Shown here piece by piece: positions 4,964 to 9,003 of a stretch of DNA of 64,000 nucleotides. The notes beneath the pieces were generated by a model, which made no database searches, had not been told where the DNA came from, and was given only the letters and a program-made list of their open reading frames with translations. Source of the stretch: Escherichia phage KarlGJung; sequence record MZ501089. One strand, given 5' to 3'. Numbering within the stretch: position 1 is the stretch's first letter; each line of letters opens with the position of its first letter. The position numbers and the translations under genes are program-made.

Positions 4964-4992
4964 ATAGTATCATGTTTAAAGCAGAAGTAAAC
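4964..4992 (-). promoter_or_regulatory. Early promoter upstream of motA (GTTTAC-N17-TACTAT)
   Basis: gtaaac at 4987-4992 and atagta at 4964-4969 on + strand, i.e. -35/-10 on mRNA strand; AT-rich upstream. Confidence 0.55.
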
Positions 4993-5031
4993 ACTTTTTT
5001 GCACTCTTTTTCAAGAGCTCTAATAAAGTAC

Positions 5032-5259
5032 TTACTTAATGTTCAGATTACGAACTTCGATTTCGTCTTCATGGGCAAAATCAAACTGTTTGAATTCTGT
5101 GTCACCTTTAAATTTAAAAATCATTGTGAAGAAAGTCAGAACACCAGGTTTTTCTTCACGAACTCCACAGATATCATATTCAATACCATCTACAACCAGT
5201 TTGTTAGCAGTCAGAGCATTTTTAGCTTTAACGATTTCGTTTTCGATTTTAAATTTCAT
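5032..5259 (-). CDS. Hypothetical protein, 75 aa
   Basis: Track ORF with own early promoter and ATG start. Confidence 0.45.
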   Translation of the reverse strand: MKFKIENEIVKAKNALTANKLVVDGIEYDICGVREEKPGVLTFFTMIFKFKGDTEFKQFDFAHEDEIEVRNLNIK

Positions 5260-5308
5260 TTTTTGTATCTCCGGGTTGTTTGTTTCAGTTCATTTATTTG
5301 ATAGTTGT

Positions 5309-5394: not shown

Positions 5395-5544
5395 TTACTG
5401 CATGACTGTGATAACTGTCATGATAACACGTTGAATTCCGAACGCAAGAAGACCTCCTGCTACGGCAGGAACAACACCTAAACCCGCCAGTAAAATGCCA
5501 CCAGATACTAATGCAGCGCTTGTGATACCAATGAATGGACTCAT
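5395..5544 (-). CDS. 49 aa glycine-zipper membrane peptide (below track cutoff)
   Basis: Hand-translated MSPFIGITSAALVSGGILLAGLGVVPAVAGGLLAFGIQRVIMTVITVMQ; ATG overlaps gp52 TGA (ATGA); terminator follows. Confidence 0.45.
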   Translation of the reverse strand: MSPFIGITSAALVSGGILLAGLGVVPAVAGGLLAFGIQRVIMTVITVMQ

Positions 5545-6869
5545 TTGATTTCCTCTAAATCTTTGGTGTATTCTGTAACTACATCAGTAGTTTTCCAATA
5601 TTCGTTTTCTTCTTTTTTGGCTTTAGCTTCTTCAGCAAGTTTCTTTGCTTCGTCGGAAGTCATATGAAAAATGTTCATTCCAACTAGTTTATCAACATAA
5701 GAAGAATACATATCAATTTTAGAAAGTTCTTCGGTCAGTTCTTTGCGAGTTTTACCTTGTACAACAATTTCACCTGAAATTACTTTCTTAATGAAATGTG
5801 CCTTGGCAAAAGCTAAACGAAATGCTGATTCAGTTTCTTTGATTTTGTTATCAATTCGTTTTTGGACATAAGTTTTACGAACTTCAACGAAGTCTTTGAT
5901 TAAATCAACTACATTATCGTAAACTTGCAGCTTTCCTTTCTCATTAATGACGGTAATATTCTGGGAACGACGCTCAATCAACCCGAAGTCTTTCATAATT
6001 TTTGCATGGCGTTCTTCTTCATTATCGCTCAAAGAGTATTCTTTTCGGAATTTAACTTTGAAGCCAAAGCCATGCTCACCACAAGCATCATCCCATGTAA
6101 TGAAGCCTTTATCTTCAAGCGGGTCTAAGATTTTACTCACATAAGTTTCACGATCATACTTATATGGAATCTCAGTGATATGCATTTGAGTTCGTGAAGT
6201 AAACTTATATGTTCCACGAATTTCATATTGCCCATCAATTTCAACGACTTCACCACGAAATTCTGGGAATTCTACCTTCGGTTTAGTTACTTTCTTTCCT
6301 TGAAGAGCTTGCAGTACAGCTTTCTTGACAGAAGAAACACTATGAGGAAGAATGTAAGTTGCATAACCAGTTGCAATACCGGAAACGCCATTAAGAAGAA
6401 CAGTAGGAATAATAGGCAAATAGAAAGCAGGCGGAATGTGTTCTTTATCTTGATGTACTGGAGCATATTCAGTATCTTTATATACGTTATAGAAATTTTT
6501 ACTTACACGAGCAAAAATATAACGACTTGCTGCTGCCTTTTGGACAGTACGAGAACCAAAGTTTCCTTGACCGTCTAACAGAGGAAAGTTATTATTCCAA
6601 GTGTTAGCCATCAAAGCACCTGCGTCTTGCGCAGAGTTTTCACCATGATGATATCCAAGGTCCGCTACACCGCCTGCGATAGAAGCGAGTTTGTGAAACT
6701 TATCTTTATTTCCTCGTGCCAAATCAAGAGCTCGAGCAATAACAAATCGTTGAACTGGCTTAAATCCGTCAATCATATTTGGAATGGCACGATTTTCAAC
6801 CGTGTACATAGCATAAGCCAATGCTTCATTATCAATGATACTTTTTAAATCACGATTATTCAGTTGCAT
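5541..6869 (-). CDS. 52: DNA topoisomerase II medium subunit gp52 (GyrA-like)
   Basis: 442 aa; MQLNNRDLKSIIDNEALAYAMYTVENRAIPNMIDGFKPVQRFV...; active-site region ASRYIFA. Confidence 0.9.
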   Translation of the reverse strand: MQLNNRDLKSIIDNEALAYAMYTVENRAIPNMIDGFKPVQRFVIARALDLARGNKDKFHKLASIAGGVADLGYHHGENSAQDAGALMANTWNNNFPLLDGQGNFGSRTVQKAAASRYIFARVSKNFYNVYKDTEYAPVHQDKEHIPPAFYLPIIPTVLLNGVSGIATGYATYILPHSVSSVKKAVLQALQGKKVTKPKVEFPEFRGEVVEIDGQYEIRGTYKFTSRTQMHITEIPYKYDRETYVSKILDPLEDKGFITWDDACGEHGFGFKVKFRKEYSLSDNEEERHAKIMKDFGLIERRSQNITVINEKGKLQVYDNVVDLIKDFVEVRKTYVQKRIDNKIKETESAFRLAFAKAHFIKKVISGEIVVQGKTRKELTEELSKIDMYSSYVDKLVGMNIFHMTSDEAKKLAEEAKAKKEENEYWKTTDVVTEYTKDLEEIK

Positions 6870-6873
6870 AAAT

Positions 6874-7014
6874 TTACCATACTAGTGAATGTAGTGCCAT
6901 AATAACATCAGAAATGAAAAGCACGACTTGAATTAATCCGAACATTATTCCGTAATATAATGCTATCAATAAAATAGCAAGGGCTAATGAATAGCCCAAG
7001 ATTTTCTTAATCAT
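6874..7014 (-). CDS. 46 aa membrane peptide (below track cutoff)
   Basis: Hand-translated MIKKILGYSLALAILLIALYYGIMFGLIQVVLFISDVIMALHSLVW. Confidence 0.4.
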   Translation of the reverse strand: MIKKILGYSLALAILLIALYYGIMFGLIQVVLFISDVIMALHSLVW

Positions 7015-7165
7015 TAGTAGATAACAACACAAATGTTAAATATGCACACATACCCTGAGCTAAAGCTTGCGAAAACACACTGCTGGCATCAATACAGATA
7101 GTTAAAACACATGCTACTATCCAACAAATAAATGAAATAACTCCTAATAATTTTGCGATATTCAT
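7007..7165 (-). CDS. 52 aa membrane peptide in the position of T4 ac (below track cutoff)
   Basis: Hand-translated MNIAKLLGVISFICWIVACVLTICIDASSVFSQALAQGMCAYLTFVLLSTND; SD GAGG. Confidence 0.4.
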   Translation of the reverse strand: MNIAKLLGVISFICWIVACVLTICIDASSVFSQALAQGMCAYLTFVLLSTND

Positions 7166-7172
7166 ATTTTCC

Positions 7173-7253
7173 TCACTGGCGTCCGAAGACGCCTTTAGTT
7201 TTAAGATTATTACGATAGAACTGCATCACGTGTTCGTTGTGGAAATTACTCAT
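7173..7253 (-). CDS. stp: Stp peptide (26 aa; activator of host PrrC anticodon nuclease in T4)
   Basis: Hand-translated [26 protein letters not shown], matching recalled T4 Stp; TAATG overlap with ndd stop. Confidence 0.7.
7178..7193 (-). other. UUCG-tetraloop hairpin spanning the 3' end of stp
   Basis: ggcgtc-cgaa-gacgcc on + strand (loop UUCG on mRNA). Confidence 0.45.
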
Positions 7254-7711
7254 TAATACGCCTGCAAAACGAATTTAAAATTATCAGCCAACATACGGTT
7301 CATTTCTTCAAGTGTTTGATACTCAGAATGATGATTACGAGTAAACGCTAAAGCTAACTGTCCTTTTCCAAATCCCGTCGTCAGAGGTTTCATCTTAGAA
7401 GCAGGCAGATAAAATACTGTGTATACCATATTGTTATTTGCAATAGTACATGCAAGCTGAGACCGACGTTGACGAATATGACTTAGAACTGCACTGAATC
7501 CTTGCTTAGAACGCTGATTACCTACATAAAATCGTGCAGACACACATGGATTACTAAATGGACGACCATCTAATTTACTTACTAAAAAATAAAATCCAGG
7601 TTTAGATAAAATATCTTTATGCGGAGTTCCCAAAAACCACTCACCACCCTTGATTGTACCAATAACAGTAGCGCCTGCATTATTCAGATCAGTAACAGTC
7701 ATGTATTTCAT
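7253..7711 (-). CDS. ndd: Nucleoid disruption protein Ndd
   Basis: Track ORF 7253..7759 trimmed to internal ATG with SD GAGGA: [43 protein letters not shown]... Confidence 0.7.
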
Positions 7712-7771
7712 ATTAATTTCCTCTAAATTATTTTCTACTCCAAGGCCGCATGAATACACGCGGCCATTAAA

Positions 7772-7987
7772 TTAATCGTCGCAGTCGACGCTCAATTCCC
7801 AAAACTCTTCTACGGTATAAGTTTCAGTATCATTTTCAATACAGAAACGTTCATTACTGTTATTTGCTAAAGTAGCATTAACTGTCATTTTTTCGCTAGT
7901 GCTCTTAAGAGGTGAAATACGAATTAACTGATCACCGTTATCTAAACAAAAAATTTCACCAACTTTTACATCTTTAAAACTTTTCAT
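7772..7987 (-). CDS. Hypothetical protein, 71 aa
   Basis: Track ORF on early strand. Confidence 0.4.
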   Translation of the reverse strand: MKSFKDVKVGEIFCLDNGDQLIRISPLKSTSEKMTVNATLANNSNERFCIENDTETYTVEEFWELSVDCDD

Positions 7988-8102
7988 AATTCACCTCAAG
8001 GAGTATAAAATCCAAACGCAGTTGTTGACCATCCCATCCAATATGGAAAATTTGCACCAATGTAAAACATAAGAATATAAAACCAACCGCTCAGCAAATT
8101 CA

Positions 8103-8321
8103 TCATTTTACACCATTCCAAATTGTTTCAACCACGGATTTTAAACCATTTTGATGAATATCAATTCCGACTACTGTCATCAAATAGATTCCAACTACAA
8201 CTGAACCTAAGGCAAAAATCAGCATGAAAATGAATAAAGCCGGAAAAATATTATCGAAAAACCATTCAATAAATGTAAAAGCACTGCGTTTACGCTTCAT
8301 ATTTTCCTCACATAAATCCAA
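8103..8321 (-). CDS. Hypothetical small membrane protein (start uncertain)
   Basis: Track ORF with hydrophobic core FPALFIFMLIFALGSVVVGIYLMTVVGI. Confidence 0.3.
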   Translation of the reverse strand: MDLCEENMKRKRSAFTFIEWFFDNIFPALFIFMLIFALGSVVVGIYLMTVVGIDIHQNGLKSVVETIWNGVK

Positions 8322-8421
8322 AGTAAGCGTTTAATACATCAATCATTAAAACGATTGGGAATATACTCAAAACTACTAGTATTATAACTACATTCCATAT
8401 AGCTTTAACAATCTTTTTCAT
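8308..8421 (-). CDS. 37 aa membrane peptide (internal ATG of track ORF 8308..8556)
   Basis: MKKIVKAIWNVVIILVVLSIFPIVLMIDVLNAYFGFM; SD GGAGG; early promoter just upstream. Confidence 0.3.
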   Translation of the reverse strand: MKKIVKAIWNVVIILVVLSIFPIVLMIDVLNAYFGFM

Positions 8422-8449
8422 TTTCTGTTCCTCCGTAGTTGATAGGGTA

Positions 8450-8479
8450 ATAGTACCACGGAAGAACAGTCTTGTAAAC
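8450..8479 (-). promoter_or_regulatory. Early promoter (GTTTAC-N18-TACTAT)
   Basis: gtaaac 8474-8479, atagta 8450-8455. Confidence 0.5.
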
Positions 8480-8664
8480 AACTTTTTTAAAAATATTCGT
8501 AATAAATGTGAATACCAACTACTACCGCTGAAACCTGTGCAACCAACCACGCACAAGCAATAAGTACAGAATTCAAAATTTTCATAATAACCTCATTACA
8601 AAAGTAAATGTTAAACAAATTAATGGAATACTAATTAACCAAACAAAACACCACCATAATGAAC

Positions 8665-8928
8665 TCATAGTTCAATCTCAGCGATTTTCATTTCATTATT
8701 GTTAATAGCATTTTTAAGACTATCCGAAAGAATTACATTCCAGTGGTCATTCATATGACCATTAACTAAGCGTGTAATTTCTTCGGGAGTTGAAAAATAA
8801 GGCGTATCAGACTCCCAATGCGATAATCCTAAGCGAGTATAAATCATGCCTTCATCATCGCTAGAATATTCAACTGACACAAACTCATCAGTTATTTTAT
8901 GTTTAACGTAAAAGAACTTAAATTTCAT
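8665..8928 (-). CDS. Hypothetical protein, 87 aa
   Basis: Track ORF; SD GGAGG; early promoter upstream. Confidence 0.45.
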   Translation of the reverse strand: MKFKFFYVKHKITDEFVSVEYSSDDEGMIYTRLGLSHWESDTPYFSTPEEITRLVNGHMNDHWNVILSDSLKNAINNNEMKIAEIEL

Positions 8929-8956
8929 TTTCTGTTCCTCCGTAGTTGATAGTTGT

Positions 8957-8986
8957 ATAGTACCACGGTCCTTGTGGTATGTAAAC
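8957..8986 (-). promoter_or_regulatory. Early promoter (GTTTAC-N18-TACTAT) with a small hairpin in the spacer
   Basis: gtaaac 8981-8986, atagta 8957-8962; spacer contains ccac..gtgg inverted repeat. Confidence 0.55.
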
Positions 8987-9003
8987 TGTTTTATGAAAAT
9001 TTT

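Follow-up and report, generated by a model that had tools for sequence, protein, structure and literature searches.

The ndd-to-52 segment of a T4-like phage: genes stp, ac and 52.1, and a C(UUCG)G hairpin within the stp coding sequence

The locus described here is part of a 64-kb stretch of phage DNA (hereafter, the window), for which all open reading frames (ORFs) of at least 20 aa were listed. Three micro-ORFs are found between gene 52 and ndd, all of them on the minus strand and with the coordinates and lengths given in an initial annotation made from the sequence alone; as that annotation had also remarked, they are missing from an ORF track limited to 60 aa, each of the three being shorter than 60 aa. 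The features of the locus, as assigned in this work and listed in the direction of the genes, are the following:

7253 to 7711, minus strand: ndd (nucleoid disruption protein), the upstream neighbour, 152 aa; Pfam PF06591.
7173 to 7253, minus strand: stp, 26 aa, ATG start; T4 identity, PF08133 and phrog_6763.
7178 to 7193, minus strand: C(UUCG)G hairpin, GGCGUC-UUCG-GACGCC, with a 6-bp stem, within stp; read from the sequence.
7163 to 7175, minus strand: stp-ac junction UGAGGAAAAUAUG, with the stop codon TGA at 7175-7173, the Shine-Dalgarno sequence GAGG at 7174-7171 and the ac ATG at 7165-7163.
7007 to 7165, minus strand: ac, 52 aa, ATG start; T4 orthology and phrog_2501.
6874 to 7014, minus strand: 52.1, 46 aa, ATG start; PF24129 (DUF7396) and phrog_3595.
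5541 to 6869, minus strand: gene 52 (DNA topoisomerase II medium subunit), the downstream neighbour, 442 aa; Pfam PF00521.

Alignment to the T4 reference genome (NC_000866) displayed an identity of ~96.6% over a 3.4-kb stretch around stp-ac-52.1, and a search of phage records with a 1.1-kb query around the micro-ORFs revealed 99.9% identity to several Tequatrovirus isolates, with 493 records covering at least 80% of the query. Judging from these similarities, the window evidently belongs to a T4-like phage of the genus Tequatrovirus, closely related to T4 itself. In the reference genome, genes 52, 52.1 (46 aa), ac (51 aa), stp (26 aa) and ndd are arranged on the same strand, and their order in the window is identical. 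Considering the identity or near-identity of the products, the T4 gene order, the matches to family models, the coding-type substitutions and the coupling signals described below, the segment almost certainly corresponds to ndd-stp-ac-52.1-52 of the T4-like early region, the micro-ORFs being the orthologues of T4 stp, ac and 52.1; no evidence against this identification was met. The two overlapping membrane peptides of 52 and 46 aa, previously described as lying in an ac-like position, thus turn out to be the T4 genes ac and 52.1 themselves. Furthermore, since the family-model matches reach E = 2e-21 (stp), 3.7e-25 (ac) and 4.8e-22 (52.1), the three frames are evidently not chance ORFs. None of these genes is new: the T4 reference genome carries annotations for all of them, and T4 stp and ac have both been subjects of experimental study.

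Codon changes with respect to T4 were distributed, as synonymous to non-synonymous, 2:0 in stp, 5:0 in ac, 1:3 in 52.1 (a ratio that is uninformative when taken alone) and 38:1 in gene 52, whose product differs from T4 gp52 by a single amino acid and matches PF00521, the gyrase/topoisomerase IV subunit A family, with E = 9.1e-77. On the other side of the micro-ORFs, the ORF list begins ndd with a GTG (7759), whereas its true start is the ATG at 7711: the PF06591 match (E = 3.1e-93) covers residues 17-168 of the GTG-start ORF, and the T4 protein, of 151 aa against 152 aa in the window, starts with MKYMTV.

The 26-aa peptide had been matched in the initial annotation to T4 Stp, and the alignments to T4 stp and ac bore this out, with 26 of 26 residues identical to NP_049878 in NC_000866; a difference at functional residues was looked for, and none was found. 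At the nucleotide level, the two stp genes differ by only two bases, both synonymous, in the codons of His5 and Asn15, and in both phages stp directly follows ndd with a TAATG overlap and leads to the same downstream junction to ac. Residues 1-26 align to model positions 1-26 of PF08133 (Nuclease_act, 'Anticodon nuclease activator family'; 75.3 bits with a cut-off of 25, E = 2e-21), and phrog_6763 is matched as well (E = 4.4e-21). The peptide is hydrophilic and basic (GRAVY -1.03, net charge +3), and a tblastn search with it retrieved 422 phage records at an identity of at least 99%. A sequence search of the PDB with Stp retrieved zero matches even at E = 10, i.e., no solved structure among its relatives.

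Stp is both required and sufficient for the activation of PrrC, the latent tRNA-Lys anticodon nuclease; it acts via EcoprrI, the type Ic restriction-modification complex that holds PrrC inactive, and it relieves the restriction exerted by EcoprrI and EcoR124I, not that of type Ia enzymes (PMC3014915; PMC1484252). Its functional and conserved part resides in the N-terminal 18 residues, with suppressor (loss-of-function) mutations clustering at residues 4-14, and removal of the 8 C-terminal codons leads to only a moderate drop in activity (PMC3014915). In the window, the N-terminal 18 residues, including positions 4-14, are unchanged from T4. Since the whole peptide is identical to that of T4, the Stp of this phage is expected to display the same activity. 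Following the T4 literature, Stp, produced as a delayed-early protein, would bind the host type Ic complex (EcoprrI, EcoR124I), with the consequent block of DNA restriction; in prr+ hosts, this binding would release latent PrrC from the complex, the released nuclease would cut tRNA-Lys in the anticodon loop, and the cut tRNA would be repaired by the phage polynucleotide kinase and RNA ligase 1. The Stp, PrrC and EcoprrI system is a textbook example in which a suicide nuclease of the host senses an anti-restriction factor of the phage, and the exact identity of Stp predicts that PrrC would be triggered by this phage in prr+ hosts; if so, the phage would need its own tRNA repair enzymes, which may be relevant to host-range work.

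The hairpin is located at about codons 20-25 of stp, i.e., its last six codons (GGC GUC UUC GGA CGC C). Its stem consists of 6 pairs, 5 of them G-C, and the UUCG loop is closed by a C:G pair, with a minimum free energy of -11.5 kcal/mol in a 34-nt context. The location first given for it, 7178-7193, stands, whereas the accompanying claim that it spans the stp stop and the next Shine-Dalgarno sequence does not: the structure ends at 7178, 2 nt before the stop codon, and both signals lie outside it. In the predicted fold of the 34-nt context, the ac ribosome-binding site, the stp stop and the ac start are all unpaired, and in a 121-nt fold the stp stop and the first G of GAGG take part only in a weak 4-bp stem; as modelled, the hairpin does not mask the ac ribosome-binding site. 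For the 121-nt stp context, the fold was no more stable than those of shuffled sequence (z = -0.37), so that only the local 16-nt stem-loop is notable, and a larger regulatory structure masking the ac ribosome-binding site was rejected on this value. An Rfam scan of positions 6400-7900 on both strands (E <= 1) produced only a sub-threshold match to TarB (20.1 bits against a gathering threshold of 80, E = 0.69), which was judged to be due to chance, leaving no Rfam family over the region.

C(UUCG)G hairpins of T4 mRNAs were reportedly described as 'extraordinarily stable' by Tuerk and co-workers in 1988, where the stability of this tetraloop is said to have been first recognised. They are also the subject of a commentary (PMC4371310). 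The stp hairpin resembles them in its UUCG loop, its C:G closing pair, its G+C-rich 6-bp stem and its position on the sense strand of early genes; it lies inside a coding sequence, thereby doubling as protein code, and no U-tract follows it. Under a criterion of C(UUCG)G with a stem of at least 4 bp, the 64-kb window contains 13 such hairpins on minus-strand RNA versus 2 on the plus strand, further minus-strand cases being those at 9644-9629, 9873-9856, 15154-15137, 25975-25954 and 62466-62447. As the bare hexamer CTTCGG occurs almost equally on the two strands (20 and 18 times), the strand bias is a property of the hairpins rather than of the hexamer. Such an abundance on one strand is a classic trait of T4 mRNAs. 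From its sequence, the structure within stp belongs to these numerous, highly stable T4 mRNA hairpins, and it most likely acts as a local folding or 3'-exonuclease-barrier element.

An alternative, which we regard as unlikely, is that conservation of the Stp C-terminus (GVFGR) is due mainly to its encoding the RNA hairpin, rather than to a need of the peptide. The moderate reduction in activity upon loss of the 8 C-terminal codons would agree with it (PMC3014915), as would C3, C6, A12 and C15, the four paired stem bases at synonymous third positions, which are fixed or wobble-compatible in T4-, VR7-, L022- and L009-type phages. The variants in other Tevenvirinae are limited to U in place of C3 or of C16 and to a UUUG loop, pairing being preserved in each, in a comparison comprising a small number of independent lineages, none of them with a true compensatory double change; together, these patterns hint, albeit weakly, at selection on the RNA structure within T4-type phages. 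Conversely, the siphovirus homologues (Rtp, K1ind2 and L018-L023) keep KGVFGK with other codons and no hairpin (-1.3 to -1.9 kcal/mol), which points to a constraint on the peptide itself in those phages, and T2-type phages have lost both the hairpin and the C-terminus, yet are viable. The hairpin is absent from both T2-type and siphovirus stp genes; the Stp C-terminus differs in T2 (…KNFGILGFKK) and in TOPO13 (…GSKNS), neither of which carries it. The small sample of independent lineages in the C-terminus comparison also speaks against this alternative. From these sequences, the Stp C-terminus appears to be conserved in its own right as well, and it is doubtful that the CUUCGG hairpin in the last stp codons constitutes a selected RNA element. 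Were it selected, it might represent an mRNA 3'-end barrier or a processing punctuation between ndd-stp and ac-52.1-52, or else a stop for antisense transcription, and it would constrain the otherwise dispensable Stp C-terminus in T4-type phages.

Less probable still is a function of the 7178-7193 hairpin as a terminator, whether between ndd-stp and ac-52.1-52 on the gene strand or for antisense transcripts of the plus strand. In the G9062 record, the same 16 nt bear the gene-strand annotation 'putative transcriptional terminator, -10.30', and a consensus scan found a terminator-like arrangement on the plus strand (7178-7203), where the hairpin folds with -10.3 kcal/mol and the stem is followed by TTTAGTTTTA. 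On the gene strand, however, the sequence after the stem is AGUGAGGAAAAU, which lacks a U-tract, and the hairpin is situated within a reading frame whose translation is linked to that of the following gene; on the plus strand, the U-tract after the hairpin is interrupted and no gene end lies nearby. Moreover, the terminator scan is a pattern match only, its 9 sites versus 2.0 expected in 4.4 kb being an overall enrichment that constitutes no proof for the hairpin site. A Rho-independent terminator carries a U-tract directly after the stem, and here the T-rich tail is present on the antisense side only; because no U-tract follows the stem, the hairpin does not appear to be a typical intrinsic terminator on the gene strand.

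The genes around this hairpin leave almost no space between them. The stop codon of ndd (TAA) and the ATG of stp (7253-7251) overlap as TAATG, base 7253 being common to both genes; the stop codon of stp overlaps GAGG, which is separated by 5 nt from the ATG of ac; the ac and 52.1 frames share 8 nt (7007-7014) in the form of ATGATTAA, so that the 52.1 ATG falls within the last ac codons, with no Shine-Dalgarno sequence found upstream of it; and the 52.1 stop is 4 nt apart from the gene 52 ATG. Such an arrangement indicates that ndd-stp-ac-52.1-52 are packed for coupled expression, as far as can be read from the DNA. A promoter scan yielded 15 sites versus 16.5 expected, i.e., no enrichment over shuffled sequence, and no convincing sigma-70-type promoter on the gene strand between ndd and gene 52, which fits co-transcription from upstream early promoters; this result likewise fits the delayed-early expression reported for stp (PMC3014915).

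The Ac peptide of the window (52 aa) is MNIAKLLGVISFICWIVACVLTICIDASSVFSQALAQGMCAYLTFVLLSTND. It comprises all 51 of the 51 residues of T4 Ac (NP_049877) plus one in-frame Thr (codon 50), so that its C-terminus reads …LLSTND in place of the …LLSND of T4; the five other base differences in ac are all synonymous, and the gene occupies the same position in both phages, with the same 8-nt overlap with 52.1. The 52-aa version is identical in JK08, G9062, TOPO13 and IMG/VR loci and represents the common form among sequenced relatives, and in near-identical phages the gene is annotated as 'acridine resistance'. Ac matched phrog_2501 (E = 3.7e-25) and no Pfam family. The peptide is strongly hydrophobic, with a GRAVY of 1.42 and a 19-residue Kyte-Doolittle maximum of 2.74 (values from a hydropathy calculation, not a topology prediction). 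In T4, infection with Ac is acriflavine-sensitive and deletion of ac results in resistance (bioRxiv 10.1101/2025.06.30.662393; PMC13250531); a 2025 preprint proposes that Ac inserts in the membrane and impairs AcrAB-TolC efflux (bioRxiv 10.1101/2025.06.30.662393). By extension from T4, the Ac of this phage would insert into the inner membrane and raise the intracellular concentration of acriflavine.

Diversity was observed at the ac position among relatives. In the phage T2 record PV958097 (L004, 899-1057), ac codon 11 is changed from TCA to the nonsense codon TAA, in keeping with a dispensable gene that frequently acquires mutations in laboratory stocks. In other Tevenvirinae (L005, L009, L012, L013, L019, L022 and L024), the slot is occupied by unrelated hydrophobic peptides of ~49-55 aa, such as MTSVFSFIYLV…, MQTVFTFIWLV…, MVILVFIELIM… and MNILQGFAAG…. 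The 13-nt UGAGGAAAAUAUG junction is kept in Tevenvirinae despite the unrelated gene that follows stp, and 52.1 is kept in VR7-type loci with an unrelated gene in the ac slot (L005, L012, L013 and L019).

The mechanical ORF list extends 52.1 upstream to a TTG at 7032 (6874-7032, 52 aa); taken from its first ATG, at 7014, the 46-aa peptide is MIKKILGYSLALAILLIALYYGIMFGLIQVVLFISDVIMALHSLVW. It is identical at 43 of 46 residues to T4 gp52.1 (NP_049876), with the same length, position and start/stop context, and the differences, from window to T4, are I14A, I17V and I23V, all of them conservative and with Ile in the window. The JK08 and G9062 versions are identical to that of the window, and the one of Gaprivervirus VR7 has the same length and 38 of 46 residues in common. 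Residues 1-46 align to positions 1-46 of the Pfam model PF24129 (DUF7396; 78.3 bits with a cut-off of 27, E = 4.8e-22), and phrog_3595 is also matched (E = 8e-25). The peptide is strongly hydrophobic (GRAVY 1.80, 19-residue Kyte-Doolittle maximum 2.50), and no described function for gp52.1 or DUF7396 was found in a literature search crowded by the number '52.1'. We infer that gp52.1 is a putative conserved membrane peptide, probably translated by coupling to ac; its translation is argued from conservation and family membership. That 52.1 is no gene, i.e., a frame of hydrophobic appearance that stays open fortuitously or owing to an overlapping signal upstream of gene 52, is hardly credible, for the missing Shine-Dalgarno sequence, the unproductive literature search, with neither function nor experiment, and the three non-synonymous changes among four changed codons relative to T4 are set against a length of exactly 46 codons with the same start/stop context in T4, T2, TOPO13, JK08, G9062 and the more distant VR7 group, changes among relatives that are all aliphatic-to-aliphatic, a score well over the DUF7396 gathering threshold (78.3 versus 27 bits), and an overlap with ac, ATGATTAA, that is a typical translational-coupling arrangement.

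The practical value of these results lies in annotation, as the scan recovers known genes missed by an ORF track with a 60-aa cut-off. Being only 26 codons long, stp is unannotated in most deposited Tequatrovirus records, where ndd is the only feature under the Stp match, by virtue of the 1-nt overlap. At least one deposited record, that of JK08, lacks gene 52.1, and in the T2 record PV958097 (L004) the feature annotated as CDS 1032-1187 turns out to be 52.1 with an upstream extension to a TTG, as in the ORF list of the window. Upstream of ndd, a run of minus-strand micro-ORFs at 7772-9000, many of them hydrophobic, corresponds to T4 ndd.1 to ndd.6; most are under 60 aa, and the same ORF track would miss them.

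Three other stretches of the window differ from T4. The distal tail-fibre gene 37/38 area (1-1517) does not align to the corresponding part of T4, variability being expected there, and neither does 4972-5295, in the motA/motA.1 intergenic area, which contains a 75-aa ORF on the minus strand (5032-5259). The segment 8697-8939, between the ndd.x cluster and denB, with an 87-aa ORF on the minus strand (8665-8928), has no counterpart in T4 NC_000866 and is present in Shigella phage JK08, annotated as hypothetical.

Unrelated siphoviruses (Drexlerviridae, Kagunavirus) likewise encode homologues of Stp, in which the N-terminal 18-25 residues are conserved. Their stp loci include 1483-1575 in phage Rtp (L007), 1501-1578 in K1ind2 (L008) and 226-450 in L017; in Rtp, stp is found two genes downstream of a polynucleotide kinase gene, and in L017 it is fused in frame to the next ORF.
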